Source of the DNA: Octopus vulgaris
Lineage: Eukaryota
DNA length: 64,000 nt
NCBI GenBank assembly: GCA_951406725.2
Contig: OX597827.1
Coordinates: 34,844,001-34,908,000, forward strand
Direction of reading: 5' to 3'
In this document: positions 1,807-60,588 of the stretch, piece after piece
Numbering within the stretch: position 1 is the stretch's first letter
How the letters are laid out: each line of letters starts with the position of its first letter
The notes under the pieces: generated by a model
What the model saw: only the letters and a program-made list of their open reading frames with translations
Database searches by the model: none
What the model was told of the DNA's origin: nothing
Translations under genes and position numbers: made by a program

Positions 1807-2856
1807 TTATAGTTGATTAACACCACCAGATTCTGGTAGGTTGTACTGGAAAACTTGATCCTTGTTAGATGATGGATTCACTTCAGCCAAGTTTGGCATC
1901 ATATGTGCTTTCTCATGACACTGTAGGATTGATTTTTGAGGGAAGACTTTTCCACAGACATTACATTCAAAGATTTTTTTGTTGCCATGTGTGCGTTTAT
2001 GAGTCTTGAGATTGCCTTTCTGGGAGAAATTCTTCCCACATATATCACAGGAGAATGGTTTCTCACCTGTATGAGTTCTGATGTGACTGAGTAGGTTAAT
2101 TCTTTGTGCAAACGCTTTGTCACATAAGGTGCAGACATATGGCTTGTGACATGCATGTGTGTGCTCATGGTTACGAAGGTGTGCACGCTGGCTGAATGCT
2201 TTTGAACAATGGGAACATTGAAAAGGTCGCTCTCCAGAGTGTGTCCTTATATGGTTACTAAGATGATCCTTCTGGCTGAATGCTTTTGGACAGGTGGGAC
2301 ATTTAAAAGGCCGTTCCCCTGTATGGGTGCGCTCGTGTACTTTGAGATGAGCTTTTTGGCTAAAAGACTTAAGACAAACTGAACATGTGTAAGGGCGGTC
2401 ACCTGTGTGTGTCCGCTCATGGCTGCGCAAATGTGCTTTCTGAGCAAACACTTTCTGGCAGTAGACACAACTATGATGCTGTTGCCGGTCACTATTTCCG
2501 GAAAATGCACTGTGTTCATGATTTTGAAGGTTTGCTCGCCGACTAAAGCTTTTGCGGCAAATTTCGCACTTGTAAGGTTTGCTGCTGTGACTTGCGACCT
2601 TGGCAGAAGTTTGCGACTCTGGTGCATTTAAATGTTCACGGTTATTCCGAGACTGGTAGCCACCCTTGACTGAATTGTTTAAATAATGAGGGCAAGTGGG
2701 TTCATGGTGATGGTGGTGATGGTGGTGGTGGTGGTGATGGTAGCGTGAGTGATTGTTATCTTCAGGTTGTTGAAATGGCTTGTTGTTGACGTCATATCTG
2801 TACTGGTTATCCACAGAAGATGAACTTGGATAAACAGGTTGCATGTGAAACATCAT
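1807..2856 (-). CDS. C2H2 zinc-finger protein (349 aa; poly-His tract; 7 canonical plus 1 degenerate finger), single coding exon (ZNF1 below)
   Basis: Intact ORF with CxxC-x12-HxxxH repeats and TGERPF/TGEKPF linkers. Confidence 0.95.
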   Translation of the reverse strand: MMFHMQPVYPSSSSVDNQYRYDVNNKPFQQPEDNNHSRYHHHHHHHHHHHHEPTCPHYLNNSVKGGYQSRNNREHLNAPESQTSAKVASHSSKPYKCEICRKSFSRRANLQNHEHSAFSGNSDRQQHHSCVYCQKVFAQKAHLRSHERTHTGDRPYTCSVCLKSFSQKAHLKVHERTHTGERPFKCPTCPKAFSQKDHLSNHIRTHSGERPFQCSHCSKAFSQRAHLRNHEHTHACHKPYVCTLCDKAFAQRINLLSHIRTHTGEKPFSCDICGKNFSQKGNLKTHKRTHGNKKIFECNVCGKVFPQKSILQCHEKAHMMPNLAEVNPSSNKDQVFQYNLPESGGVNQL

Positions 2857-3595
2857 AATTATATGTATGCGAAGGGCTTTGTTTAAAACATAAGGAATAT
2901 CTCATTCCATAGCAGTCATGGTGTTGCAAGCAAAACCAATTCTTTTTAAATTTTGTCAATTCTTAAATCATCACCTTAAACACCTACTGTTAATAATTCT
3001 TGACAATTCAAATACTTGGCTCTTAGAGGAAAGTTTGGACAAGCTGTAAGGATTCTTTATGCTTGATCATTGCATGCAAGCAGTTATGATATCTAGGGAT
3101 CATTGAAAGAATTAATGACTTTTGAATAATTTATAAATATATATATATGTGCATATAAAATTTTTTACAATGATCATATTTGTCTTAAATACTGTAGAAC
3201 CCCATGTACTATATGTAGTTTATCATAAAAACCAGTATTAAAATTAGAGGTGTATATAATACAATGTACTCATTAAAATACAGGTGTATATGAATATCTT
3301 GCTCAAATAATTTACAAGTAATCACAAGGTTTTTAAGACAATTTAGGTCCCGAAAATTAAGGTATGTACAATATACACAAACTTTATACTAAGTCAAATA
3401 AAGACTAGTAAATAATTTTTTCCTGCATATTTAGGTGTTACAGGATAAAAAGTCTGTTGTGTTGTGAGCTAGTTAGATCTGTTGAGTAGTCTTCATATAG
3501 TGTGTGACTTTGGCATCTCAACAAGATGTAGTCAAGAAAAGCAAATAAGACTCTTCTAGTTTTCTGTTTCAGTTACCATTCCAATCTCCATACAT
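2857..3595 (-). other. Putative 5' UTR part of the ZNF1 coding exon (acceptor AG at 3597-3596)
   Basis: Minus strand TTCTTTGTGTCTTTGCAG|ATG; repeats begin just beyond this point. Confidence 0.5.
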
Positions 3596-4298
3596 CTGCA
3601 AAGACACAAAGAATTAATCCAACACAAGAAAGCATGAAAGGCAACAACACAAACAATATAAATTTGAAGAAGTAGTAGTAGTAGCAGTAGAAGAAAAAGA
3701 AGAGCTCATAGTCATCTCTGATTGAGCAGACCTATGACCAACGATATACCAGCCATAATCAGAAACACTATATTGTCTAATGTGCTCTTCCTTTTTACAG
3801 GTAACAGGGAGTGATTTGAAATTTGGTTACTATTTCTAGCAGCTTGAACAACTGTGTAGATGCTCTCTCATTCTCTATAAAACCTAGTATAGTAGCAATA
3901 GTTTAGCCCTACATCAGGCCCTTTTGAAATAGTTTTATGACTGAAGATATTTCATCCTTGACCATCAGGTCTTTTATTTTCCAAGAAGCCTCTATGTAAC
4001 TGCTTGATCTGCTAGAAACAGGCACCACAAAAATAAGATGTGAGATTTATATGGAAGGTAAAATGTAACTGTGGGACATTTATTCCTTTTTTTTAAAGAG
4101 TATTAGTGAATTGGATGCAGTAAAATAGCTAGAAAAGATGGCAATTGAAAGTAAGTCTTAGGAAGCCAGGAAGAAGGGACCATAACTACTGTATTTTGTC
4201 TGATGTCAGTCATTTGGTGGGGGGTAGGATCACAGTGAATTAAATTGACCTCAGAATTTAACCAGCACTTTTCTTTTAATGACTATAGAAGAATGGTA

Positions 4299-4500
4299 AG
4301 GTGGCAAGCAGTCAGAATTGTTAGCATGTCAAACGAAAATCCTTAGAAGCATTTCTTCCTGTTGTTTATGTTCTGAGTTCAAACCCTGCCAAGGTCAACT
4401 TTGCCTTTTATCCTTTTGGGGGTCGATAAAATAAAGGACCAGTCAAGTACTGGGGTTGATGTAGTTGACTTGACCTCTCTTCTTAAAATTGCTGGCCTTC
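4299..4500 (+). mobile_element. tRNA-derived SINE, family 2
   Basis: GTTCTGAGTTCAAA box B, GGTCAACTTTGCCTTT, AGTACTGGGGTTGAT; further copies near 9515, 25370-25740, 33790, 37230, 37910, 41240, 62430. Confidence 0.7.
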
Positions 4501-4579
4501 AACCCTGCAATAGATTGATAGATAAATCTAGCTCTTATCCTCTCAGTTAACTTCGTTAGCAAGAGGAAGAAATTTAATG

Positions 4580-4945
4580 ACTTGTATGGTTAAGAAGCTT
4601 GGTTTGCAGCTGCTTGGTTTTGGGTTCAATTTCACTGTGCAGTACCTTGGGCAGATATCTTCTACTACTATAGATGCAGGCTGACCAATGCCTTGTAAGT
4701 AGATTTGGTGGACAGAAACTGTGGAAGACTGTGCAAGTGTGTTTTTGTGTTTGTCTTCCACCACTGCTTGACAACTGGTGTTGGTTTGCTTATGTCCCCG
4801 TAGCTTAGCAGTTCAGCAAAAGAGACTGTTAGACTAAGAATCAGACTTAAAAATAACTACTGGATGGAGTCAATTTGTTTGACCAAACTCTTCGAGATAG
4901 TGCTCCAGCATGGCTGCAGTCCTATGACTGAAACAAGTAAACAAT
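4580..4945 (+). mobile_element. SINE family 1, diverged copy
   Basis: Colinear with 769-1156. Confidence 0.75.
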
Positions 4946-7849
4946 AGATGATTAAGACAACCTTCTAACAGAGTGCAAAATTGATGTTAAAAATTTAAAA
5001 AGGAAAGTAGACACAACAAAAAATAAAAACATCAGTAGGTAGGTGACCAAAAATTTTTAAGCGTGAAAACAGGTGACAATACAGCAGCAAGTGTTCTAAG
5101 ATCATATTTTCCTTCTAACGCAGGGATTAGCTTTGCAGGGCCCCATGACAGACTTCTCTATTTTGCCCTGCGCTCTACATCCTTACCTAAATAATTCTAC
5201 TTACTCGTTTCCTTCAGGTATATTTTCATTGATCTTCCCTTTCCTTCCACATGTTGAGGAAGTGAGATGTTTAAGTGCAGTCACAGCTCCTTGGTTAAGA
5301 AGTTTATTTCACAACCATGTGGCTATGGGTTCAATCTCACTAAGTAGCACCTAGGACAATTGCCGTCCTTCAACTGTAAACTTAGATTGCCCAGTATCTT
5401 GGAGAGCTCTAGGTATCTCCACCTGGGTAGCTCTAAGGACATAATTGAAGGAGGGACACCCTGTTTATTAAGGAAATAAGCTTCTTAGATTCACGACAGC
5501 AGTTTTTGTTACCATATTTCTGTTGAAATATGGTAGCAAATTACTTTGTTACCATATTATTGCCTTTGTTTCAATTAATTTTGAAAATATTGAAGAATTT
5601 AATCAAATAAAACAGTCATTGTTAAGCTGGTATATGGAACATAAATTAAGATGAAATTTTGGTGGCAAGTTTTAACAGCAAGTTTGTGTTATAGAACCAA
5701 GGGCAGTTTCAGGTGTTTTGGCATCAAAAGAATTAAAGATATCAAGACCCAAATGATTAAATCAGCAGGGAAATTGTAATGGGGTGGTGATGGTGCTAGA
5801 GTTAAGCAGGTTGTTGTTCAGCACTAGGTCAATCCTGATGAAAGACCTAAGATTAAAGGCATTCTAGTTTGGACCATCTTGTCTTTGTAGGGGTACCTAA
5901 GACTACATTATGCAATGTGATCTTTTTTTTCTAAGACAAGATATAATGTGATTAGAGGGAGGTTTAACTGTTATTTCTAATGACTACAGACATGTTAACC
6001 TTGTTTGAGGTTTTGATGAAGATGCCTCATTAATTTAGCAATGCTGATGAAGTCAATGAAAATTAAGCTTATTCCTAAAAACTGGAAGAGGAGGAGGATA
6101 GGATGGGTTGTGTGTGTTATTGGAAGGGAACTGATGAAATGAGAAGTGAAATGAAGAGAATATGAAAGTAGTGTGTGTATGTGTGGAGGAGGTTCAGGCG
6201 CGGACAACATTTGTAGTAAATGAAGAAAGAGGAATGGGAGGAGGAAGAGCAGATTTTCAATAATCAATTCAAAATTACACTACAACAAAATATTTAAAAT
6301 TAGAATATTTAGAATGCATTCTTCCTTTTAGAACTTAATACCCTAGTCAATGGAGAGACACTATAAAAGACCGGAGGTAGTTAAGTAGATAGAATAGTGG
6401 GGTTGGACAGTACCAATGAGGATAACACTAATTGATTAGAGATATGGCGGAATATAGTGAGAGAGAGAGAGAGAACTACAGGAAAAGGGTATTTATAACA
6501 AGGAAGTTGGAAGGATACAGGGGAAAGTGTAAGAGAAATGAGGAAAAGGAGAATTTTTTAAACTTGTTCAACCCAACTATGGAACAAAAGTGTAGTGGTA
6601 GAGTATTAAATGAGATAAATTGGGTGTTCGTATTTCGGGGCTATTTTTTTATCATTATTGAGTAAAGTTTATAGCGAGATGTTACGTGTTTAATTTACCT
6701 GTATGTTCCATTGTACATCAACAAACGGAAGGGCGCTGGGGAAGGAGTGGGTTATTTTGGCAAAACAACAGCACCATAATAAAATGTTAAGTGGTAGGTA
6801 GGACAGTAGATTGAGTGGATCAAAGGTATTAAAACCGTCCAATTTTTTACGGAAGTATCTAAGATAACATTATGCGGAATGTCCATAGGATGTAAATGAA
6901 TACAGATTTCTACGTGAGTGAGCAGACATGTTCGTTCAGGACAATAGTTATCAAGACATGATAGGGAAGAACATTCTTAGATGTTCCATGATTTTAGTTA
7001 ACCATACAATACCTGATCTCCATCACGATTATTTGAAACGAAATATATAGAAAGTGGAATGGTAACCACTCCTAACAGAAATAGGCATCAAAAACTGCAA
7101 AGACGAACATAACAGGAAAACAAAGTGAAGACGGAATACTATTGTTCCTAAACCTAAGAAAAAAATCAGGCATAAACTTGACAATTATTGATTGAATAAA
7201 AAAATTTCCTCTCGGTTTATATTTTATCTTCTTAAATTATGTTGTGAATATCTTGTTCTGGCTGTAAACAAGCTAATTCAAAACTCGTCTTCAATCATGC
7301 ATTGATGTTATTACTAAGTGAAGAACCCTTTTTCGGGTGAAATTATTCTTTTTTGTAATTACCGGACATTTATTTTTCAATATTACAGTAATTTGTAACT
7401 GGAATGTAAAATGAAGATAATATTGTCGTTTAGCTCCAAGTCAGCTCTGGTCAAACTGTCGACAATATAAGTTCAGCACCATTCGATCTGTGACGATCTT
7501 TCTACGAATATCTAAGACTAGGTTTTCCAAGGTGCCCCTTGTTTTTAAGACAGATAGGCTCTGATTCAAGAACTTGCTGCTATTTCTAACAGTGCAACTT
7601 ACCATGCGAAGGTAAACCTCGATTCCGAGGAGAAAGCGAGTGGAGTAGAATGTGTAATATTGGAGTAAACAGTTGAAAGTGAAATAGATTGAATTGTAAC
7701 GACAAAGAATTGTGCTTCGCTCTATCTACTTGTATATCGGACGAGTGTTTTGGCGTGGACATGAAAGAAACACACGTGTGTATGTATAAGATTAGCGGCT
7801 CAGTTTATTTGTACGTCGGATATGTGGAAGGAAACAGTGATTATAGATG

Positions 7850-8300
7850 CATGGTGTTTCCCAGTCGACTTCCATTTTGAACAAGAGGGAGAAAAAACGA
7901 AATTGATGTTTCACTGAGTCGTTATACGGGACATGACGGGGAGGGAGACTGATACAACATTGGCTGTTCACTGTATATTAGTTATATCTGACATTAATGG
8001 TTGGAAAGAACAGTTGTGTGTATATATAAAAATTTATGATGTTTCGTTATCGACTTCAATCTGGAACAGAATAAAGGGAGAAAAAAATATATAAAAATAA
8101 CGTTTCCACTACATATATGGGACATGAAGGTGGGGAGAATATGTACAAAACATTGATGTTTCACTGTAGACTTGTTAAGGGCGGGAAAGAATATATATAG
8201 GAAGTGAAGCAAGCACTAACACACACACGCACACTAGAAAATATTTGCTGATCCATTGTGGACTTGATATATCAGACATGAAGGGAGGGAGAATGTTTGA
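7850..8300. repeat. Degenerate ~60-70 bp tandem repeat
   Basis: Recurring GGGAGA...TTGATGTTTCACTG...GGACATGAAGGG motifs. Confidence 0.5.
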
Positions 8301-8343
8301 TTATTTTTCAGTTGATCGAAAGTAAGAGATGATGATGACTTAC

Positions 8344-8430
8344 ATTCCAGCCTCCACTTAACGAGAGAACTGTGAATCTGCTGCGGCCATAGGTTGCTTC
8401 CCTTTGTTAAACTACCATGGCCGACCTACT
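8344..8430 (-). promoter_or_regulatory. Putative non-coding first exon / promoter of ZNF1
   Basis: Minus-strand donor GTAAGT at 8343-8338; YY1-like ATGGCCGC and GGCCATGG motifs; locally CpG-richer, repeat-poor. Confidence 0.45.
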
Positions 8431-11400
8431 TTCCTCTATTCTCATTTGTGAGAAACACTTGAACAATGACTAGAATTTTTTTTATCCCAGTTACATTTCC
8501 AACTGAAATATTTTGTTTGATAGGTTACTCTGTGTGTGTGTGTATATATATATAATAATAATAATAAAAAATATATATATAGTTAATTCACACACACACT
8601 GAATGTAATAAGAATATAATTTATATATTTCTTTCTCAAAATCTGCAAATAAAAGAAATATAAAAATGTTGGTAATAATCTCCATCCCTCCGCCTAAACA
8701 ATTCCAAAACCTCCTTCCCTCCATAAGATTTTTTTATATCTTCCAATCATACATCTTTTTATTAATTTGTTTCTGGAAATTTATAATTATTTTTGGAAAC
8801 CAAATATTTTTTTCATAAATGAACGACTTTTTATTATGATTGTATAATAAATAGAATTTAGTTAAAGCATTTAAATAATCCATCAATGAATTTCTCTTCA
8901 AAAATAAAATGTATTCAAGTAGGGAGGGGGAAGACAAAAAGACAAATATCATGCTCCGGTTTTTCTCGTCGTCATCGTCAATTTTCGTCAATAATTTTGT
9001 AATTTATTTTCATTTAACTAATACAAAATGGAGTTCGAAATTAACTTTCAAAATGAACTAAAAACTACTTTTGCAAAATAGAATTAATATTAAATGATAT
9101 TAAATTTAGTAAAACTTGATTTGGATTCCTTTCTCTCTGCAGCCAAAATAAAAAAAAAGCCAACGTGATCGAGCTGTTTAGTCTATCGAGATCTTAGAAC
9201 TTAGAAATAAAATACGCTTTAACATCGATTAGTTAATCCAGTTTTAATACAGTGTAGTGGTTAATTAATTTTATAATAATGCGGTGAGATTAATTTTATA
9301 ATAAAAAGGCGAGATTAGCTTGTATAGTTTGGAATAGAATGAGACTTGTGGAGTAAAAAATAATTACGAATTAATATCTTCTAATGCAAATTGTTCGCTT
9401 TTCTACCTGTGCCAAAAATATCGATTTCTTTCTTGGTTGGGTAACATACCGGTATAGGAAAGGTTATGGGTAATTGAATCAACCTTCGTTTAAAACAGGT
9501 ATTCAAGTATGGGAATTGGCAGAGTCGGTAGACCAACGGATAAATGCCAAATGGTATCTAACTACGGCCCTTTACGTTCTGAGTTCAAATCCTCTTGAGA
9601 TTAAAGTTGCCCTTCATCCTTGCGTGGCCATAAAATACAACTACCATTCGAGTACTCGATTTAGTAATACTATAATGGAATTTCAATAGATGAAAAAAAC
9701 CCACAAAGGGGCTTCTATGTGGTTGCTGGCTCTTTTAGAAATAGCACCAAAATCTCTTTCAGATATCACTGTTATTAGAAAAGTAGAGAAAGATGCACTG
9801 AATTTGAAAGGACAAGAAGGCCATAACGGTAACACTTTGGTCATAGGTTTGCTTTGTCAGAAATGAATAATTTTACTCACTCCTAGAGAGATGGAAGGTA
9901 AAAGTGTTAACTAGGATTGAACTTTGAATATAGAGTGAATTAAATGTTGGATGCCATTTAGGGTGGTTCCATATAAATGAATAAGCCAGAGGATTATGCC
10001 AAATTTCTGTGTCTGCTTTGGAATGATGGCATGGAAAGCAGACGTTAAACGACGGCGATGATGATATTATTTGTTGTCATAGTATCACTCATGCTTTCAT
10101 GAATCTGTTGATATAAAACCTTACATACTTTGAGAGCATAGGGTCATATTTGGTAGTATTGGTTTCCAGTTTTGGCAGAAGCAACTGTATGAAGCATTTG
10201 TCATAATTTATATTATTTGTTGTCATGGTATCACTCATGTTTTCATGAATCTGTTATAAAACCTTATATACTTTGAGAGCATAGGGTCAAATTTGGTAGT
10301 AATGGTTTCAAAAGTTTGGCAGAAGGATCTGTGAGAAGCATTTGTCATAAATGATATTACTAGCAAATCTACCCATCTACAATGGAGGCATAAAATGAAG
10401 GAGGGATGCCTTAACAGCAGTATGTATTGAGAAATGTGTAAGTGGACTTGATAGATTACTGGATGATGTATAAGAGTAATCACATTATTGTTGGTGATAC
10501 AGAATTCTGTTGCAGCTATATGATGTGTTCGTGATCGACATATGAAATAGGCTCTCAGCCTCTGTATCATGAATGGTTATATGGACCACTCCTAACGAAA
10601 GCCAGAGCTTCTTTCGACCACTACATAAAATGTATTAAGAAAAAAATGCTGTTTAGATATACTTTTATTTTAGTTGTTTACACTATTTTATGCTTGTTTA
10701 TACTTTTATATATTCAAAATTCACAAATTTCCATATTTAAATTATGAATCATATTCCTTTCGATAATATCAATATGATTACAAAAACTTCTTTGTAGATG
10801 ATACATTCTGTTTGGTTGACACTAATTTTCAAATTACTGGAGTCTGTTGCTCTACTCATAAATGGCCCTGTGTAAACATCGGAGTGGGTAAAAATACACC
10901 TACATGATCTAAAGTCTGGCCCTGTGCTTTGTTTGCTGTGAATGCGTGAGCAGAATCGTTAGGGTTGCAAAAGCTCAAACTTACCTCTCACTGCTCTATG
11001 CAAATAATGTCTGGATGTTCTGGTACCATGGATTATTTTGATTGACAAAACTGAGATGTAAACTTCAGCCACTTTGATTAGCCATTTCGAATCCTGCTTG
11101 AGACAGACACACTTCAATAACCACACACATTTTTTCCATTTCATTTTCACTATTAACCAACCTTGCAACCCACTTTGTATCTAAGATGGGGCCACAAACT
11201 ATACAATGAAAATCCAGAGTTACATGTGGTCAGTGAATTTTTGATAAAAATGCGAAGGCGGTTTATTAATTCAGAAATCAATATCTACAAAATAATCATA
11301 CATTCTGATCCTTTAATTCTAAAACCCTTCCTGATGACTGTCTTGGTAATCCCCCAAAATATTGTAACCATTGGTCCAGCCATTTGGCCATGAGCAGGGA

Positions 11401-13011
11401 ACAAAGAGATGGACATAACACCCATTATAGTAAGATAGCAAATCTGCCCATCTACTATGGGAAATAAAGGGAAAGTATCGCAAATCTAAACCTTCTAAAT
11501 TCCTGAACTATACGAGGATGGGTGGAAATCCAGAGTTAATCCTCATCAAACAACAAAAAACAAATTAATACAAAACTCAATATCCACTAAATAATCATCC
11601 TTTTTCCCATTTTTTCTGCCAACAACCTTCTTGATTACCACCTTTGTAATCCCAAAAAACATTGTGACCATTTAACCATGGAGAGGGAACAGACAAATGG
11701 ACATAACTCCTATTATAGTAAGATTTGTTGTCATAGTATCACCTATATGCTTTCATGAATCTGTTATTATAAAACTTTAAACATTTTGAGAGCAAAGGGT
11801 CAAATATATGCTATGTAGTTGTGGCTCTTCCCACAAAGGGGAATTTATTGGTAATATTGATTTCAAATTTTGGCCCGGGGCCAGCAATTTTGGGGGAGAG
11901 ATAAGTCCAAGAGATCAACCCAAGTGTTCAACTTCTTATTTTATTGATCTTGAAAAGCACAGTCGACCTCATCAGAATTTAAATGCCAAAACCTTCCCAG
12001 GCGAAGAGTGTACCCCACAACATAGACTGGTAGTCAGTGACTTTAGAATCAGGACTAAGAGGACGACTAGAAGACGACCAACATGGAGAAGAAGGGTCTG
12101 GAAGCTTAAAGACCCTGCAAATGGACAGAGATTTAGAGACATGTTACTTGAAGCCTTCAACGAAATAGAAGGGGGTATAGCTACACATGGGGTAGAAGAT
12201 AACTGGACGCTTCTAAGGGACAACCTGCTGAAAGCCACAGACCAGATCTGTGGCTGGTGCAAAGTCCCCACAAGACCCAAAATAACGTGGTGGTGGAACA
12301 ATACTGTTGACAGGGCTATTAGACAAAAGAAACAGGCTTGGAAGGACTGGAAGAACGGTGGTAGCAGGGAAGTGTATCAGACTGCAAGAAGGGAGGCTAG
12401 GAGGCAGGTGTATTTAGCCAGAGGAGAAGCAGATAAGAAAAAAATTTGCCAATGTCCTGCGCCGTGAAGATGAAAGACTTGAGGTATTTCGTGTTGCAAG
12501 ACAGTATGTGAGAGAGAATCGTGACGTGGTAGGAGAGAAATGTGTTCGCAAGGATGACGGCTCACTTGCGCTAAATGAGGATGCAAAGAGAGAGGTTTGG
12601 AGACGCCACTATGAAAGGTTGCTGAATGAGGAAAATGAATGGGATAAAGAGAGTCTGCCGAATGTTGACCCAACAGAGGGACCAGCAATCCGAGTTGACA
12701 GTTCCTTAGTAGATAAGGCAATTAGAAGCATGAAAACAGGGAAAGTCCCAGGCCCATCAGGAATTACTGCAGAGATGCTCAAAATATCTGGTAGTGCTGG
12801 CTATAGCCTAGTCACCCTATAGTTAACCAGGTGATACACGAAGGAGTCATTCCCAATGACTGGTGTAGCAGCATAATAGTTAACTGCTACAAAGGTAAAG
12901 GTGACGCTCTAGATACAAATAACTACAGGGGTATCAAGCTGCTAGATCAGGTAATGAAGGTAACGGAGAGGGTTATAGCCCAACAAATTAGAGAGAGTTA
13001 GCTTAGATCAG

Positions 13012-14346
13012 ATGCAGTTTGGGTTCGTGCCAGGGAAAAGTACTACTGATGCTATTTTCCTTGTAAGACAGCTGCAGGAGAAATACCTAGCCAAAGACAA
13101 ACCCCTATACCTGGCTTTTGTCGATATGGAGAAAGCCTTCGACAGGGTCCCCCGATCCCTTATCTGGTGGTCAATGAGGAAGCTAGGGATAGATGAATGG
13201 TTAGTGAGAGCTGTACAAGCCATGTACAGAGACGCTGCTAGTAAGGTGAGGGTTGGCACCGAGTACAGTGAAGAATTCAGGGTAGAGGTAGGGGTCCACC
13301 AAGGTTCAGTCCTCAGCCCCCTCCTATTTATCATAGTCCTCCAGGCAATAACGGAGGAATTCAAGACTGGATGCCCCTGGGAGCTCCTCTATGCTGATGA
13401 CCTTGCTCTAATTGCTGAGTCTCTATCAGAACTGGAGGAGAAGTTTCAGGTGTGGAAGCAAGGTTTAGAATCGAAGGGCCTTAGAATCAACCTAGCCAAA
13501 ACCGAAGTCCTAATAAGTAGGAAGGTAGACCAATCACAAACGCCTTCAGGTAGATGGCCTTGCTCGATCTGTAGAAAAGGTGTAGGTAGAAACTCTATCA
13601 GATGCACCAAATGTAAGCTATGGACACATAAGAGATGTAGTAATGTCAAAGGAAGACTAACTAGGAAAATAGTTTATATCTGTGGCAGATGCTCAAGAGC
13701 AATAAACTCTGAAAATATGCAGAGACCAACTTCTATCAAGTTTCAGGGAGAAAAACTAGAAGTAGTTGATAGCTTCCGCTACCTAGGTGACCAAGTCAGT
13801 AGTGGGGGCGGGTGTGCTGAAAGTATAACTGCTAGAGTAAGAATAGCCTGGGCAAAGTTTAGAGAGCTCTTACCCCTACTGGTGACAAAAGGCCTCTCGC
13901 TCAAAGTAAAAGGCAGACTGTATGATGCATGTGTATGTACAGCCATGCTACATGGTAGTGAAACTTGGGCTGTGACTACTGAGGATTTACGTAAGCTCGC
14001 AAGAAATGAAGCTAGTATGCTCCGTTGGATGTGTAATGTCAGTGTTCATAGTCGACATAGTGTAAGTACCTTGAGAGAAAAGTTGGACCTAAGAGGCATC
14101 AGATGTTGTGTGCAAGAGAGACGATTGTGCTGGTATGGTCATGTGGCGAGAATGGACGAAGATAGGTGTGTGAAAAAGTGCCACACCCTGGCAGTTGAGG
14201 GGACCTGTGGAAGAGTTAGACCCAGGAAAACCTGGGTCGAGGTGGTGAAGCACGACCTTCGAACTCTAGGTCTCACCAAGGAAATGACCAGAGACCGAGA
14301 CCTGTGGAAGTATGCTGTGCGTGAGAAGACCCGGCAAGACCAGTGA
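13012..14346 (+). pseudogene. RTE reverse transcriptase ORF fragment (444 aa) with PHD-like Cys/His insert
   Basis: YADD, then CSIC..CTKC..H..C..CGRC, then FRYLG; upstream frameshifts near 12440-13010. Confidence 0.85.
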
Positions 14347-14364
14347 GAACAATCAAAATCAAAT

Positions 14365-14835
14365 CATATATCCGTGTCCGCTGCCAGCCTCGTCTGGCAC
14401 CCATGTCGGTGATACGTAAAAGCACCATTCGCTCGTGGCCGTTTGCCAGCTCTGTCTGGCCCCGTAAAAGCACCATCCGTACATGTTCATTGCCAGCCTC
14501 GGCTGGCCCCCGTGCCGGTGACACGTAAAAGCACCGTCCGTTCGTGGCCGTTTGCCAGCTCTGTCTGGCCCTGTGTCGGTGGCACGTAAAAGCACCATCC
14601 GTTCGTGTCCGTTGCCAGCCTCGGCTGGCCCCCGTGCCGGTGACACGTAAAAGCACCGTCCGTTCGTGGCCGTTTGCCAGCTCTGTCTGGCCCCGTGTCG
14701 GTGGCATGTAAAAGCACCATCCGCTCGTGTTCGTTGCCAGCCACGGCAGGCCCCGTGCCGGTGACACGTAAAAGCACCATCCGTTCGTGGCCGTTGTGCC
14801 AGCTGTCTGGCACCTGTGCAGGTGGCACGTGAAAA
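14365..14835 (+). repeat. ~60-bp minisatellite (about 8 units, alternating A/B) in the RTE 3' UTR
   Basis: CACGTAAAAGCACC core repeated with GCCAG...CTGGC hairpins. Confidence 0.9.
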
Positions 14836-15444
14836 ACACCCACTACACTCGCGGAGTGGTTGGCGTTAGGAAGGGCATCCAGCTGTAGAAACACTGCCAA
14901 ATCTGACTGGGCCTGATGAAGCCCTCCGGCTTCACAGACCCCAGTTAAACCGTCCAACCCATGCTAGCATGGAAAACGGACGCTAAATGATGATGATGAA
15001 CATAAAGACGAACGAACTGCTGCAAAGCAATTTGCACAGCATGCTAACAATTGTTGCTGCCTTAGTTTATTGGTACCCTTAACCACTTGTTGAGGTTTTT
15101 TCCTTGTCAACAATGGAAACAGAGAAGATGTTGCTAATGAAGGTATTTGTGTAACTGCTTTACCTGCTACAAATAGCTTTCAAATCACACTCTATGGTCT
15201 GAAAATAATGCGAGACACACATTGAGCAAAGTAAGTTGTGACATACAAAAAAAGACAAAATGTTCAGGAGTGGAATATCTCTCATTATTGATCTACTGAA
15301 AGTGGCAGATTGGTAGAGTATCAGGGAAAAAAGAAAAAACAACTTTTGTAGCATTTGTTCCAGCTCATTTCATTCTGAGTTCAAATCTTACCAAGGTTAG
15401 CCAAATTTAAATTTGACTGATTGTTTGACTTACCTTCTTTTTTT

Positions 15445-15870: not shown

Positions 15871-17013
15871 TGTCTTACCATATATTAAGTCATTTTTTTT
15901 CTATAACCATTTTAACATCCATTTTCCATGGGAGAATACGTTTTCAGTGTAGGCATTGCTTATTTTAATCCAATATCACTTTATCTTTGAGATTCAACAT
16001 CTTGAAATTTGATTTCATCATTTCCATGTATGCATTCCACAGCACCAGCAGGGGGCTTCTATTGTAAATGCACAGCAATTCATTGTCCAGTACTAATTCA
16101 CTTATGTTACAGGTTCAGACAAATGCAATATGCTCTTCTACATACAGACGCTGCTTGCGTTAAAACCTGTCTGAGACTCCGTATGTGTGTGTATATCAAT
16201 CCAGTACACTCTATTTCACTCTTTCTATAACTACCATCCACTATTTTCCCTCATCTAGACCATCTGTATTTGTTACCGACCACCTACTTTTGCTATGTCC
16301 ACCTCTGCTATTGCCCATCACTCCCTTCCTGTTGCCATGCCAACAATTCTGTCTCTACTATCCTATTCTTCCTGCTTTCACTCACCCATTCTGACCTGCC
16401 ACAGTGATCTAATCCTCAAACAGATGACCTGAGTGGAAATATGTCTTAATTTATTGAATGAGAGGTGTGTATAAAGCCCCATACAAAGGCCCCTCTTGTG
16501 TGATTAGTAAGCAGGCAGTAGTCTCAAAATGTCCATTAGTTATGTCTCACCAAAGACTATACAATCTCTTTAGCGGGTTCATGAAAAAGACATCCAGTTC
16601 ACATTGTGAAGTGGCTGACTTATCAACCTCTGGTGTTGGTGCTATGAGAATATGTACTCAGTATACTCTGTAAAAAGGTTAGTGATAGGAAGAGTATTCA
16701 GATATAAAAACCAAACCAAATGACATCAGTAACTTTCAATGAGGACTTGGATCCTGATGACCTGTCCAACCCATACTATTATAGAAAGCAGACACATATT
16801 GTCTCAAATAAGCATCTATCCAACTCCTGCAGCATGGAAAAATGGATATAAAACAAATGACTGAATGAATACCCACGGATATGGGACTGTTTAATCCTAT
16901 CACTGTCAAGCAGTGGTGGGGGTCAAACAGTACAAACACATATATGATGGGCTTCCTCAGTTTTCACCTACCACATTCACTTACAATGTGTTAATTGTCC
17001 TGGGGCTTTAGCA

Positions 17014-17670
17014 CAGGGTGTACAAAAAGTCTCTCCGCAGTGATTTTTTTTTTTTCATCCAGACTCTCCAAGATGTATTTCAAAACGTGTAGAAAAGTCA
17101 ACTTAAGTATTGAAAATGACACTTTCAACACATCTTATAAAGATTTTTAAAGTCTTGACAGCACCGGCCGAGCATGATCATTGCCAGGGATGCAGACTGG
17201 CCCTCATGCCGGTGGCATGTAAAAAGCACCATTTGAGCATGATTGTTACCAGCGTCGCCTTACTGGCACTTGTGCTGGTGGTACGTGAAAAACAATATTC
17301 AAGCGAGGGTGTTGCCAGTGCCACTGGATTGGCTCCTGTGCAGGTGACACATAAAAACATCATTTGAGCGTGGCCATTACCAGTACTGCCTGACTGGCCC
17401 TTGTGCTGGTGGCACATAAAAGCACCCACTACACTCTTGGAGTGGTTGGCATCAGGAAGGGCATCCAGTTGTAGAAACTCTGCCAGATCAGATTGGAGCC
17501 TGGTGCAGCCATCTGGCTCACCAGTCCCCAGTCAAACTATCCAACCCATGCCAACACGGAATGTGGACATTAAACAATGATGATGATATTCTTTTGTAGT
17601 CCTATACGAGCTTATAAATATTTATTTTGCAATAAAATACTTACTGCGGAGAGACTTTTTGAACACCCTA
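17014..17670. mobile_element. Tc1/mariner-type MITE inserted in a SINE and carrying an RTE 3' fragment
   Basis: TIRs CAGGGTGTACAAAAAGTCTCTCCGCAGT / ACTGCGGAGAGACTTTTTGAACACCCTA followed by TA. Confidence 0.75.
17160..17586 (+). mobile_element. RTE LINE 3' UTR fragment
   Basis: Homologous to 36700-37140; ends TAAACAATGATGATGAT. Confidence 0.85.
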
Positions 17671-18595: not shown

Positions 18596-19199
18596 ATATA
18601 TCTTATTTGTACAACAAACATCAAAATGAAATTACAACTATGACAAATATATAAATTGATCAACAACATTGCTTTCTTCTTCAATTGTACATTATCAAAT
18701 ATGTTGTCTGCATTTTCTATTGGGTTACAAGAAACACTGGCTGGCCATGCATTCTCTTACAGCAGCAGCATTTTTTCCCCGTCTATGTTCCGGTGTCAAT
18801 CTATAGCTATATTGTTCACTTTCTCCTCATCTGTCTTACTTTTCCCTATCACCCCTCTCCCTTCTTTGACGTCTGAAATTACACACACACACACAAACAC
18901 CTAATTAAAGTCACAAACATGTTCACCCACTTAAAATTTCATACACACACACTTTTAGCTATATTTGTTCTACCTGATCCAAGGAAGCATGGAGAAGTGG
19001 ACATTAAACCAATGATGATGATATATAAATATATATGCAGGCATCATTGTGAACAATAAATGCTCTTTACCCTTGAACTATTTCAGACAATCAACCAACC
19101 TTCCTCTTAAGTTTTCTTTACATTCCACACAAAAGAAAAGCCCATTACTAAATCTCAAAGGACACACTACCTACATCCAGATAGTCAACCACCGCCATA

Positions 19200-22466: not shown

Positions 22467-23690
22467 TTAATTGTGCACATCTGTGTGATAGACGTCCATC
22501 TGCTGTACAGAAGGGTGGTAAGCAACACTGATCTGAGGAGCAAGATTAGTATGGTAGAGTACATTGCCTGGATGTGGTTGTACAGTGATGTGATGGGGCA
22601 CATTGGTTAAGGTAGTTATAGTCGTTGCATTGCCATTGCCATGGTGAGCAGCGGCAGCTGTCACTGCAACTGGCTCTCCATTTTGTTCAGTTTCTACAGT
22701 CACAGCAGTTGAAGTCCCTTCTTCTGCAACAACACTGATACGAGGTACACAACTCAACTTTCTGACCCCTTTATTTGGCCGCTTGTGTCTTTCCAGATGG
22801 TCAATCCGCGTAAAGGCATAGCCACACAGTTCACACTTGAAAGGCCTCTCTCCAGAGTGAATGCGTTTATGGACACGTAGGTGATCACGCCGGGAAAATG
22901 CTTTGTTGCAGACATCACAGTTGAACAATTTAGGGCGTGAGTGTATCTTATGGTGAGTGGAGAGCTTGCCTGTTGTTGAGAATCCTTTACCACAAACATC
23001 ACAAACATATGGCATGACTGGAATATGCCCAGATGATGCAGAAAACTGACCTTGCTTTTGAAGACCAATGCCTTGTGATTGGTTGTATTCTCGCCAACAT
23101 TCTTCACAGTCAAATGGTGGATTCGATGTTACTGGTGCAATCTGGTTGGAGATAACTTGATGATGTTGTTGTTGTTGCTGAGGATAAACAAGATCACTGG
23201 ACCTCACTGCATTACTAGTATGTAGGTTTGCATTGTTATTCTTATTACTCTTTTTGACCCGATTTTTCTTCACAGGAGATGCTTGGGGTGTGGCAATTAT
23301 TTGGTTGTTGATGTTGTACACTTTGCCACTGTGTTGTGTACGTGTGTGCCGTACGAGGTAATCTTTCCGTGAAAATGCACACCCACATATATTGCACTTG
23401 AATGGGCGTACCCCAGTATGTATCCGCTCATGCACAGTGAGATGTGATTTCTGGGAGAAACTGCGATCACAGGTCAAACATGTAAAGAGCTTCTCACCGC
23501 GATGAGTGCGTTTATGACGCTCCAGATTGTGACGGCTGAAAATTTTGCCACAAATATTGCATACTGCTGTCTTATCAGTGACAGATGCAGTGGAAGCAGT
23601 TGTATTCAGGTGAACTATAGTGGCAGCTGTTTCTAAATCCTGCACATCACAATGGATCAAAGTAGCAGTACTGGGCATAAGAGTATTCAT
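22467..23690 (-). CDS. C2H2 zinc-finger protein (~407 aa from first ATG; two 3-finger clusters separated by a Q/N-rich linker) (ZNF2 below)
   Basis: Intact ORF; track start at 23723 is TTG, first ATG at 23690 (MNTLMPS); linkers TGVRPF, SGERPF. Confidence 0.92.
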   Translation of the reverse strand: MNTLMPSTATLIHCDVQDLETAATIVHLNTTASTASVTDKTAVCNICGKIFSRHNLERHKRTHRGEKLFTCLTCDRSFSQKSHLTVHERIHTGVRPFKCNICGCAFSRKDYLVRHTRTQHSGKVYNINNQIIATPQASPVKKNRVKKSNKNNNANLHTSNAVRSSDLVYPQQQQQHHQVISNQIAPVTSNPPFDCEECWREYNQSQGIGLQKQGQFSASSGHIPVMPYVCDVCGKGFSTTGKLSTHHKIHSRPKLFNCDVCNKAFSRRDHLRVHKRIHSGERPFKCELCGYAFTRIDHLERHKRPNKGVRKLSCVPRISVVAEEGTSTAVTVETEQNGEPVAVTAAAAHHGNGNATTITTLTNVPHHITVQPHPGNVLYHTNLAPQISVAYHPSVQQMDVYHTDVHN

Positions 23691-35222: not shown

Positions 35223-37140
35223 TTAGAGTGTGCATATGCAGTTTGGGTTCGTGCCAGGGAAAAGCACCACTGATGCTATATTTCTGGTAAGATAGCTGCA
35301 GGAGAAATACCTAGCCAAAGATAAACCTCTGTACCTGGCTTTTGTTGACATGGAGAAAGCCTTTGACAGCCCCCCCCCCCGATCTCTTATCTGGTGGTTA
35401 ATGAGGAAACTAGGGATAAATGAATGGTTAGTGACAGCTGTGAAAGCCATGTACAGGGTCGCTGTCAGTAAGGTGAGAGTTGGCAATGACTACAGTGAAG
35501 AATTCTGGGTAGAGGTAGGGGTCCACCAAGGTTCAGTCCTCAGCCTCCTCCTATTTATCCTAGTCCTCCAGGCAATAACAGAGAAATTCAAGACAGCTCC
35601 TCTATGCTGATGGCCTTGCTCTAGTTGCTGAGTCACTATCAGAACTAGAGGAGATGTTTCAGGTGTGGAAGCAAGGATTAGAATCAAAGGGCCTTAGAGT
35701 CAATCTAGCTAAAACCAAAGTCCTAATAAGTAGGAAGGCAGACAAACCACAGGTCCCTTCAGGTAGATGGTCTTGCTCGATCTGTAGAAAAGGTGTAGGT
35801 AGAAACTCTATAAGATGTACCCAGTATAAGCTATGAACTCATAAGAGGTGCAGCGATATCAAATGAAGGCTAACTGGGAAGATAGTTTTTATATGTGGCA
35901 GATGCTCAGGAGCAATAAACACTGAAAATGTGCAGAGAACAACTTCTGCCACATTCCAGGGTGAAAAACTAGAAGCAGTTGATAGCTTCCATTACCTAGG
36001 TGACCAAGTCAGTAGGGAGGTGGGGTGGGGGTGCACTGAAAGTGTAGCTACGAGAATAAAAATAACCTGGGCAAAGTTCAGAGAGCTCTTACCTCTGCTG
36101 GTGACAAAGGGACTCTCACACAGAGTAAAAGGTAGACTGTATGATGCATGTGTACGAACTGTCATGCTACATGGCAGTGAAAAATGGGCTGTGACTGCTG
36201 AGGACAGGTGTAAGCTTGCAAGGAATGAAGCCTGTATGCTCCAATGGATGTGTAATGTCAGTGTGCATACTCTACAGAGTGTAAGTACCCTGAGAGAAAA
36301 GTTGGACCTTAGAAGCATCAGTTATGGTGTGCAAGAGAGGCGACTGTGCTGGTATTGTCATGTGGTGAGAATGGATGAGGATAGCAGTGTGCAAAAGTTC
36401 CACACTCTAGCGGTTGAGGGAACCTGTGGAAGAGGTAGACCCAGGAAGACCTGGGATGAGGTTGTAAAGCACAACCTTCAAACATTAGGCCTCAGGGAGG
36501 CAACGACTAGTGACCAAGACCTTTGGAAATATGCCGTGCTTGAGAAGACCCTGCAAGCTAAGTGAAACCATAACCCATGACCTATGCCAGTGGTGTAACC
36601 AGCCCACTTATGTGTACCTTTCCTTCATTGGACACTAAACTCTGCTTGTGAAGACCTGTTGAGGGAAGTGGAATTGAAATCAAAATCAAATTCAATGACT
36701 GGCATCTATGCCAGTGGAGTGCTAAGAGAACCATCCGAGCATGATCGTTGCCAGAGCAGCTGACTGTCACGCAAAAAGCACCATTTGTGTGTGATCGTTA
36801 CCAGTGTCACCTTACTGGCACTTGTGCCGGTGGCATGTGAAAAGGCATTCAAGCAAGGTCGTTGCCAGTGCTGCTGGACTGGCTCCTGTGCAGGTGGCAC
36901 ATAAAAAAAACACCATTTGAGTGAGGCCCTTGCCAGTACCGCCTGACTGGCCCTCGTACCAGTGGCATGTAAAAGCACCCACTATACTCTCAGAGTGGTT
37001 GGCGTTAGGAAGGGCATCCAACTGTAGAAACTCTGCCAGATCAGATCGGAGCCTGGTGCAGCCATCTGGTTCACACGTCCTTAGTCAAATCGTCCAACCT
37101 ATGCTAGCATGGAAAGTGGACGTTAAACAATGATGATGAT
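35223..37140 (+). mobile_element. RTE-clade LINE, older decayed copy of the 11980-14999 family
   Basis: Colinear RT fragments with stops and frameshifts, 3' UTR repeats, (TGA)n tail. Confidence 0.9.
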
Positions 37141-52714: not shown

Positions 52715-52938
52715 TACAAAGATAAATTGATAGATTTATCTTTGTATGTGTGTGTGTGTGTGTATATATATAACACCCTAATGGGAGCCTTAACTGCCAA
52801 ATTTTATTCATTTCTTTTATGATCCAAAACTAGGTCAAAAGTACTGAATGGATTTTTATGAAATTTGGAAATTATATTCTATGCATAAGGGCCATAAACC
52901 CCATGACAATTCATATATTTTTACTGTTGGCAAGACTA

Positions 52939-53514
52939 GAGCGATAAAATGAAGTAGCTGTTCGTCAAACGTGATCGATAAAATGACGTAGCGGTTCGCC
53001 AAACGAGATCGATAAAATGACGTAGCGGTTCGCCAAACGAAATTGCTAAAATGACTTAGCGGTACGCCAAACATGATCCATAAAATGACTTAGCGGTTCG
53101 ACAACGAGATCTATAAAATCACTAAGCGGTTCACCAAACGAGATCGGTAAAATGACTTTGCGTTTCGCCAAACGTGATCGATAAAATGACTTAGCGGTTC
53201 GCTATTCAAGATCGATAAAATGACATAGCGGTTCGAGAAATTAAATCGATAAAATGACTTAGCGGTTCGCCAAACGAGATCCATAAAATGACCTAGAGGT
53301 TCGGCAAACGTAATCGATAAAATGACCTAGCTGTTCGCCAAACGAGTTCGATAAAATGACGTAGCAGTTCACCAAACGAGATCAATAAAATGACCAAGCG
53401 GTTCGGTGAACAAGATCGTTAAAATGGATTAGCGATTCGCCAAAAATGAGATCGATAAAATGACCTAGCGGTTTGCCAAACGAGGTCGATAAAATGATGT
53501 AGTGGTTCGACAAA
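52939..53514. repeat. 34-bp minisatellite, ~17 units
   Basis: Consensus GATCGATAAAATGACNTAGCGGTTCGCCAAACGA. Confidence 0.95.
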
Positions 53515-53554
53515 CACACACACACACACACAAACACACAAACACACACACACA

Positions 53555-58529: not shown

Positions 58530-59972
58530 TCAAATATAAATAGTTTTGGAAAGTTTTTTCGGCCAGTGAACAGTTCTGCCTGACCTCGTAACATAAGGTC
58601 TGGTCGAGGCAGGCTGCGACGACGAAGGTGGTGATGTCGATGTTGGTGTTGATGATGGTGCATGTGTAAATAGTGGTGTTGTCAAAGGTGCATGTGAAGG
58701 TTCAACGATGGTTGTGGCAGTGGGGTCATTAAAAGATGTGGACACCTCAAAATATGCCCTTTTAAGACGATCTACGGAGACGGTCTCCGAACGACTGTTA
58801 ATTTCAAGTTTGAATACCTTCGGCGTGCGAGAAATCACACGAAAAGGTCCTTTATAAGGAGAAACAAGAGGTCCTTTGACAGAATCATCACGAATAAAAA
58901 CATGCGTCCAAGAATTAAGGTCTGATGGCACACTAGAAGGAGGATTTTTGTGTCGAGGGTCCATAGGAGGAAGGGCAGAAAAATATCTGCGTAATCGAGC
59001 AACATAAGACTCTAAATTAAGAGACTGTGACTTGTCTGGCACCAACATCGTACCAGGCAATGCCAGTGTGGTACCATACAAGAGCTCGGCAGACGAAAAA
59101 CCAAGGTCTGCTTTAATCGCAGTCCGACATCCAAGCAGGACGATCGGTAGAATTTCAGTCCATGACTGTGGATTCGGCGAGGCACGCAAAGCGGCCTTAA
59201 GTTGCCTATGGAAACGCTCCACCATCCCATTAAAAGCGGGGTGGTAACTTGTGGTGCGTATATGATGCATCCCCAGGATTCGTGATAACTCACGAAACAA
59301 TGCAGACTCGAATTGTCGACCACGATCTGTGGTTAAACTGTACGGTACACCATACCTCGAAATCCAATTAGATACGAAAGCCCTCGCAACAGTTTCAGCT
59401 GAAATGTCTGCTATAGGAATAGCTTCCAGCCAGCGTGAAAAGCGATCAATACAAGTTAAAATGTATGAGAACCCGCGACTCACAGGCCATGGTCCAACCA
59501 AATCAAGGTGGATATGGCGAAAACGGGCTTCAGGAGAGGAAAATTGTCCAAGTGGAGCACGAACGTGTCTATGGACTTTAGCACTCTGGCACCTCAAACA
59601 AGAGCGTGCCCAAGAGGTAATTGATCGTCGCATATTGGGCCAGAAGAACCGAGCAGTAACAAGCTTTACTGTGGCAGAGATACCTGGATGTGACAGTGAA
59701 TGAAGAGCATCAAACACAGAACGTTGATGTTTCTCAGGTACTAATGGTCTAGGTGAACCGGTAGAAACGTCACAAAGAATAGAGCCTTCCGCTGTAGGGA
59801 GCGGAAGGTAGACAAACTTACAGTTAATAAACTTAGGCGAAGTTAAATCCAACTCCTCTAAAGGTGGTTGATCCTGCGAAATAGCAGTTAAATCAATTGC
59901 TGCAGGAGAGGAAATGGAATTGACAGGGAGTCTAGAGAGAGCATCTGCAGGGACGTTCTCACTGCCTGGCAC
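58530..59972 (-). mobile_element. Ty3/Gypsy integrase region (CsRn1/Kabuki-like), 480-aa open fragment without gag/RT
   Basis: HSLSH..CLRC zinc motif, [36 protein letters not shown]. Confidence 0.92.
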
Positions 59973-59973
59973 A

Positions 59974-60588
59974 TGCCTGGTACGATGTTGGTGCCAGACA
60001 AGTCACAGTCTCTTAATTTAAAGTCTTATGTTGCTCGATTACGCAGATATTTTTCTGCCCTTCCTCCTATGGACCCTCGACACAAAAATCCTCCTTCTAG
60101 TGTGCCATCAGACCTTAATTCTTGGACGCATGTTTTTATTCGTGATGATTCTGTCAAAGGACCTCTTGTTTCTCCTTATAAAGGACCTTTTCGTGTGATT
60201 TCTCGCACGCCGAAGGTATTCAAACTTGAAATTAACGGTCGTTCGGAGACCGTCTCCGTAGATCGTCTTAAAAGGGTATATTTTGAGGTGTCCACATCTT
60301 TTAATGACCCCACTGCCACAACCATCGTTGAACTTTCACATGCACCTTTGACAACACCACTATTTACACATGCACCATCATCAACACCAACATCGACAAC
60401 ACCACCTTCGTCGTCGCAGCCTGCCTCGAACAGACCTTATGTTACGAGGTCAGGCAGAACTGTTCACTGGCCGAAAAAACTTTCCAAAACTATTTATATT
60501 TGACATTTTCAATTGACTTCCCACTGACAGTTCAATACTCATTGAACTTTGCTCATTTTGAGTATTTTTTCTCTTTTTACCTTTTAGG
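59974..60588 (+). repeat. Inverted duplicate of 58445-59059 (integrase C-terminus plus 3' flank)
   Basis: 615 bp, 8 substitutions counted by eye. Confidence 0.95.

Follow-up and report, generated by a model that had tools for sequence, protein, structure and literature searches.

An expressed zinc-finger gene on the octopus protocadherin chromosome with a predicted preference for A-rich triplet repeats

The window analysed here, a stretch of 64,000 nucleotides of chromosome 14 (C14:34,844,001–34,908,000) in the 2.8-Gb genome of Octopus vulgaris, carries ZNF1, an expressed and spliced C2H2 zinc-finger gene with a single coding exon. ZNF1 is a member of a C14 group of no fewer than 30 related genes, in which the DNA-contacting residues are nearly unchanged from finger to finger. 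Judged from these residues, ZNF1 could well be a transcription or chromatin factor of a conserved group that binds A-rich triplet repeats, (NGA)4 and (NAA)2(NGA)4, wherever they are present, a reading in which we place middling confidence. An earlier note on this DNA had proposed that ZNF1 may recognize the (TGA)n tails of neighbouring RTE LINEs, or (TAA)/(TGA) microsatellites, as part of a possible system sensing transposable elements (TEs). The predicted preference for NGA and NAA repeats was supported and RTE ends were found among the predicted sites, while a dedicated sensor for RTE tails is unlikely.

The ZNF1 gene and its finger array

The coding sequence occupies 1807–2856 on the minus strand, within an open frame of 1807–2901 in which the ATG at 2856 gives a protein of 349 aa, comprising a low-complexity N-terminus, eight C2H2 fingers and a short C-tail. 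Joints at 3595–7603 and 3595–8344 with CT..AC ends were present in contigs from all four runs examined, indicating that ZNF1 is spliced and that all coding sequence lies in its last exon. The 5′ untranslated part of this exon (2857–3595) begins at the splice acceptor at 3595, and is joined either to an upstream 5′ UTR exon at 7603–7887 (contigs of runs X17 and X9) or to an alternative one at 8344–8422 (contigs of runs X4 and X5), all on the minus strand; an in-frame stop ahead of the ATG marks the upstream exons as non-coding. AGA(TGA)3 occurs at 8327–8338, immediately beyond the splice donor (8344) in the first intron, and scores 9/12 on the motif scale given below; autoregulation by ZNF1 is conceivable, and chance is likely.

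The array is a tandem of seven intact fingers behind a degenerate one, and follows an N-terminal region with a 12-His tract (2704–2739, minus strand, as are all fingers and linkers below). The degenerate F1 (2512–2568, helix RRANLQN) has a mis-spaced second His, and a similar first finger was also found in the related genes L028, L032, L081 and L070. F2–F5 (2155–2469), joined by the linkers TGDRP, TGERP and SGERP, all carry Q at position −1 and H at +3 (QKAHLRS for F2 at 2407–2469, then QKAHLKV, QKDHLSN and QRAHLRN), and are predicted to read 5′-(NGA)4-3′. F6–F8 (1903–2133) consist of QRINLLS and QKGNLKT, predicted to read NAA NAA, and the terminal QKSILQC (1903–1965). The helices of F2–F7 were found letter for letter as they had been quoted. 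Canonical linkers join four of the six finger pairs in F2–F8 (those within F2–F5, and F6–F7), while the F5–F6 linker ACHKP (2140–2154) and the GNKKI linker preceding F8 are non-canonical. ACHKP sits exactly at the boundary of the predicted NGA and NAA blocks, which puts the change from NGA to NAA at the joint that is least dependable. The closing two-finger design also ends the paralogues L002/L007, L011 and L035. No KRAB, BTB, ZAD or SCAN match was returned by a Pfam scan of the whole ZNF1 open reading frame, which gave C2H2-type families only; the earlier note had called ZNF1 KRAB-less.

A second C2H2 gene, ZNF2 (22467–23690, minus strand, 407 aa), has helices unlike those of ZNF1, arranged in two finger groups parted by a Q-rich spacer; its orthologues are annotated in O. 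sinensis and O. bimaculoides, and 16/16 scored contacts are identical in the latter. Further features of the window are an LTR-type integrase frame (rve, H2C2) at 58530–60503, whose 3′ part is partially duplicated in inverted orientation on the other strand, and a 34-bp tandem unit in 17 copies at 52938–53515.

Predicted site and its occurrence in the genome

The site of ZNF1 was predicted with the −1/+3 rule, applied to residues beyond Q, H and N as general zinc-finger background, and matches were scored out of 12. Position +6 was omitted from the 12-point score; N at +6 favours A rather than T, and when +6 was read literally, one RTE end stood among 31 clusters of at least 15/18. Engineered modules having the same −1 and +3 residues as F2–F7 are reported to bind AGA (QLAHLRA), TGA (QAGHLAS) and AAA (QRANLRA) (PMC3607563; PMC7317221), so 5′-NAA NAA (NGA)4-3′ is a fair reading of ZNF1 as a prediction, and the reading direction adopted in the earlier note was right. 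The modules differ from ZNF1 at other helix positions, and F4 and F5 of ZNF1 carry N at +6.

Alternatively, the code may mislead: ZNF1 and its relatives would then use just a subset of their fingers to contact ordinary A-rich promoter sites of short length, dA:dT tracts or RNA, and the repeats would not be their working targets, a reading that we consider quite possible though on balance doubtful. ZNF384 has both Q/H and Q/N helices. Its binding to homopolymeric dA:dT (PMC8589989) favours such an outcome, as do the two non-canonical linkers and the degenerate F1 of ZNF1, and the report that code-based motifs agreed with ChIP-exo motifs in 11 of 236 human cases, where simple repeats were also described as a frequent output of zinc-finger motif predictors (PMC10547256). 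Arguing against it, the Q(−1)/H(+3) and Q(−1)/N(+3) pairs match well-tested engineered modules, and the helices stayed near-identical over 7–11 fingers despite synonymous saturation (see the next section).

Three LINE copies on the plus strand were compared with the predicted site. A 5′-truncated, frameshifted element at 11980–14999, with a reverse transcriptase and a PHD-like module, has a 3′ UTR with a 61-bp unit in about six copies (14463–14840) and ends in TAAA(TGA)4, while a copy consisting of this 3′ UTR only (17170–17587) and a decayed, 5′-truncated copy (35240–37140) both end in TAAACAA(TGA)3. More short decayed 3′ ends of the family lie at 10040–10065, 16830–16870 and 18985–19022. The label RTE was taken over from the earlier note, and the reverse transcriptase, sub-threshold PHD-like match and microsatellite end agree with how RTE-2_OV is described in a paper that also reports microsatellite 3′ ends to be common in RTEs (PMC9115989). 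The tail texts quoted for 14985, 17572 and 37125 were correct. Their special match to ZNF1 was not borne out, as each of the three ends scores 10/12, the same as any pure (TGA)6. Among 97 RTE-like ends gathered, of which 69 were parsable, TAAA was followed by CGA in 36, TGA in 15 and CAA in 11, CGA being commonest even though 47 of the 97 stem from a search with a CAA copy; genome-wide, TAAACGA(TGA)4 was counted 42,986 times and TAAACAA(TGA)4 6,489 times. The usual RTE end is therefore TAAA-CGA-(TGA)n, and the AAA-CAA junction is a minority form that most likely arose by CpG decay of CGA.

In the window, 20 clusters reached at least 10/12, four of them at RTE-like ends, and the three 11/12 sites were non-RTE. 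A genome sample of 80 evenly placed 10-kb stretches (800 kb), containing 42 RTE-like ends, held 18 perfect motif clusters, compared with 0 perfect sites in shuffled DNA. This number is far above that of shuffled DNA, but the excess stems from microsatellites in general. Only 2 of the 18 perfect clusters lay at RTE ends, and most of the other 16 were (TAA)n(TGA)n junctions. At a threshold of 11/12, 18 of 122 clusters (~15%) lay at RTE ends, which make up ~0.15% of the sample (42 × 57 bp, both strands), giving a roughly hundredfold enrichment. This enrichment speaks for the earlier note, but was equally high for a comparison motif, (NGA)6 (15/102 clusters at RTE ends), with (NGA)4 giving 27/186.

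These data bear on the proposal that ZNF1 reads the 3′ terminus of the neighbouring RTE family as a KRAB-less counterpart of TE-targeting zinc fingers. In its favour, 18 of the 42 sampled RTE ends score at least 11/12, the genome holds ~49,500 sites with TAAAC(G/A)A(TGA)4, and octopus ZNF motifs are reported to be enriched in TEs in aggregate (PMC10547256). On the other hand, the ZNF1 motif matched 2 of the 42 ends perfectly, as against 17 for NAA(NGA)5, which differs in one finger, and 15 for (NGA)6, and F6 mismatches the usual CGA. When all 15 arrangements of two NAA with four NGA triplets were compared, that of ZNF1 topped the perfect RTE ends (2 vs 0–1), while at the 11/12 threshold four other orders equalled it (17–21 vs 18 RTE ends). 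Among 37 genes scored for tail fit, ZNF1 came fifth; the four better ones include L070, which matches 18 of 47 RTE ends perfectly, compared with 2 for ZNF1. With the AAA-CAA form being a minority and 16/18 perfect sites lying elsewhere, the claimed fit of ZNF1 to LINE termini did not hold, and a sensor dedicated to this family appears very improbable.

Genome-wide, the motif had 90,270 exact matches, of which the CAA tail supplied 6,489 (7%) and (TAA)3(TGA)4 junctions 26,036 (29%), so that a TE-specific site was found neither here nor among the sampled perfect clusters. The reverse order of the junction occurred 21,800 times, and this small gap gives no sign of selection for the order of ZNF1. 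Several repeat families adjoin (TAA)n tracts (loci L086–L165), one of them ending in ...GCCAGCTC(A/G)C..CCT and another having a tRNA-like head; such families may seed many of the (TAA)n(TGA)n junctions.

No other single source contributed as many (TGA)4+ tracts as RTE ends (23/84). Upstream flanks shared with other loci were found for 41/84 (TGA)4+ and 60/111 (TAA)4+ tracts, some of these groups being merely repeat-rich flank, and about half of the sampled tracts had unique flanks. The shared flanks lend modest support to a further explanation, that the C14 group as a whole evolved to read the simple-repeat tails common to many non-LTR retroposons, as do the perfect match of L070 to many RTE ends and the frequency of microsatellite ends in RTEs; since a simple-repeat tail is not easily escaped, frozen helices would also be expected. 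The unique flanks of about half of the tracts, together with the lack of a repressor domain in the Pfam scan of ZNF1, count against it, leaving a small chance that surveillance of this kind shaped the group.

The chromosome-14 group and the age of its helices

C14 is the protocadherin chromosome, carrying 80 of 83 Cadherin_2 matches. Relatives were chosen for their likeness to ZNF1, with scores computed for 150 of 16,276 candidates, a criterion that inflates Q, N and H residues both on and off C14. With this bias in both sets, Q(−1) occurred in 248 of the 321 fingers of 29 other C14 genes (Q/N in 168, Q/H in 35, hence 203 with N or H at +3, and N(+6) in 143), as against 120 of the 260 fingers of 17 genes off C14 (Q/N in 23, Q/H in 27). 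Q/H runs do not just reflect a default C2H2 helix, as Q/H was seen in 74 of 1,153 fingers and a run of at least three in 1 of 120 generic hits. In a tree that was unrooted, included the helix residues, left out one of 47 genes (fewer than six fingers after the first Met) and had a bootstrap that was not settled, a single branch separated 30 C14 genes from 16 of other chromosomes with support of 96/97.

Within the group, ZNF1 fell into a five-gene H-rich subgroup with L028, L070, L032 and L081 (support 98/94). The helices of L028 are near-identical to those of ZNF1 F2–F5 (60/84 identical residues), and Q[K/R/Q]GNLK[T/S] is a frequent late finger among C14 genes; the predicted motif of ZNF1 is thus largely inherited. 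A mosaic origin, with F1–F5 from an L028-like gene and F6–F8 from an L002/L035-like gene, is conceivable from the helices and from F5 and F8, whose best matches are terminal fingers, though the nearest-finger matches of F2–F4 and F6–F7 are scattered.

The cleanest candidates for binding tests are four arrays, namely L066 (L066:1978–3936, plus strand; QxANLxN-type, Q/N in 10/10 fingers), L083 (L083:1176–3494, minus; QRANLDI-type, 11 fingers), L032 (L032:685–2151, minus; a QRTHLNN-type array of seven fingers, with Q/H in 7/8 fingers) and L070 (L070:1681–3699, minus), an array of mixed G/A type, the best six fingers of which fit the RTE end in its usual form. Other arrays differ in kind. L078, L079 and L084 (C14:77.05–78.87 Mb) form a second repetitive subgroup with xxDKLQI-type helices and K at +3, for which another repeat would be predicted, and in L003, L005, L074, L075 and L077 the helices recur every three to four fingers (NQFFLKN, QKINLKN, QRGNLKL, QKINLND), as would suit a target repeating every 9–12 bp. 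In P0176 (554 aa), eight Q/N fingers follow one another and the N-terminus differs from that of the octopus group; it may be an array of like kind that arose independently. A start of M-Y/F-S/P/T-x-Q, often MYPxQPxY, was seen in 19/30 C14 genes and in 0/17 elsewhere; it is kept in the relatives P0145 and P0150, ZNF1 has the variant MMFHMQPVY, and the start may be an effector or degradation motif.

The fraction of differing codons for the same residue was 0.43–0.60 between fingers of one gene, compared with 0.56–0.59 expected for unrelated fingers, in the 10 genes tested, L032 being the least saturated at 0.43. Position −1 was invariant in six of these genes, whereas in nine the residue opening the stretch between the two cysteines was 4–24% identical across fingers. 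Recent finger duplication as the source of the repeated helices was ruled out by this synonymous saturation, and near-saturated synonymous sites with alike contacts indicated that the uniform helices are old and maintained. Helices that stay near-identical over 7–11 fingers despite such saturation are what a periodic target would select.

Consistently, the finger regions of three paralogues were identical between O. vulgaris and O. bimaculoides (389/389, 280/280 and 332/332), including all contact residues (56/56, 40/40 and 48/48), and a further orthologue of L012 kept 54/56 contacts with 53% identity outside the fingers, as against 98% within Octopus. For ZNF1 itself, a 430-base contig of run X19 (depth 4, ~98% identical) showed 10 differences, of which eight were listed, seven being synonymous and one a Y-to-F change outside the helices. 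No ZNF1 protein orthologue was identified, the whole-protein search being swamped by unrelated many-finger proteins and the representative search, whose query took in finger 1, likewise swamped; searches with the N-terminus gave 0 of 18 candidates and then one weak match among 38, Atlas searches generic C2H2 clusters only, and a PDB sequence search generic arrays. Exact look-ups of three ZNF1 start variants gave none either, an absence that says little since 8/9 paralogue ORFs were likewise absent. The long-range conservation of ZNF1 is therefore deduced from its paralogues.

Rapidly changing base contacts, a trait of an arms race, were found neither in the paralogues tested nor in the X19 contig of ZNF1, and the helices of the C14 group look old and frozen, unlike in an arms race. 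The helix fingerprint on which the TE-sensing role had been built is a family trait, frozen across species in the relatives tested. The paralogue helices stayed unchanged, yet LINE bursts in O. vulgaris are dated to 18 and 56 Mya (PMC13282606) and RTE-BovB expansions are described as octopus-specific (PMC8967140), which further argues against a sensor of one RTE family.

Candidate function and relation to known systems

Should ZNF1 bind A-rich triplet repeats as predicted, the core contact would be made by F2–F5, joined through canonical linkers, with a run of four NGA triplets, and F6–F7, set off by the non-canonical linker, would favour NAA more loosely 5′ of it. Its strongest sites in the genome would be expected at compound (TAA)n(TGA)n microsatellites and at other tracts, of the (TGA)n, (AGA)n or (GGA)n type. 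RTE tails, at roughly 7–15% of top sites, would make up one plentiful class among these and not a selected target, while the N-terminus, with its His tract and MY-x-x-QP-x-Y-like start, would probably act as the effector part.

CLAMP, GAF and ZSCAN4 are C2H2 factors that bind simple repeats. Similar to ZNF191/ZNF24, which bind (TCAT)n (PMC2694838), and to ZNF384/CIZ, ZNF1 would work as a periodic array reading a periodic sequence if the prediction holds; those factors are single genes or small families, whereas here ~30 paralogues vary one helix type. With the TE-targeting KRAB-ZNFs and FiNZ-ZNFs (PMC10547256), ZNF1 has in common a tandem C2H2 array and a predicted site found in a TE, but it has no KRAB match, its tested relatives gave no positive-selection signal, and its predicted site is a simple repeat lying mostly outside the neighbouring RTE.

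As a multi-finger C2H2 gene on the protocadherin chromosome, ZNF1 resembles the C2H2 expansions of cephalopods (PMC9068888; PMC9795677; PMC12513265), in which a C2H2 cluster on that chromosome is reported (PMC9068888; PMC9795677). In the passages considered, these papers deal with C2H2 counts, trees and expression; PMC12513265 calls the targets of the expanded genes an open question, and the words helix and motif were not found in it. Taken together, octopus ZNFs have been suggested to target TEs (PMC10547256; PMC12988792), and the expansion of C2H2 genes is commonly put down to an arms race with TEs (PMC12988792). A frozen group of ~30 genes with near-homopolymer Q/N/H arrays was not found in literature searches, while Supplemental Data 3 of PMC10547256, with predicted octopus ZNF–TE matches, may already include these genes. 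The C14 group goes the opposite way to a TE arms race, its contact residues being frozen and repeated.

As a broader and tentative proposal from the helices, at least 30 frozen C14 zinc-finger proteins would form an ancient cephalopod family that shares out the A-rich simple repeats of the genome. Just as tentatively, L066 would take poly-A-like tracts, L083 (NAA)n, L032 (NGA)n, L070 NAA(NGA)5 and ZNF1 (TAA)n(TGA)n. Because the arrays are near-homopolymers of one finger, a few repeat oligonucleotides would put these predictions to an unusually simple test. If true, the very large content of microsatellites and retroposon tails in these genomes would amount to a regulatory code with a protein family dedicated to reading it.
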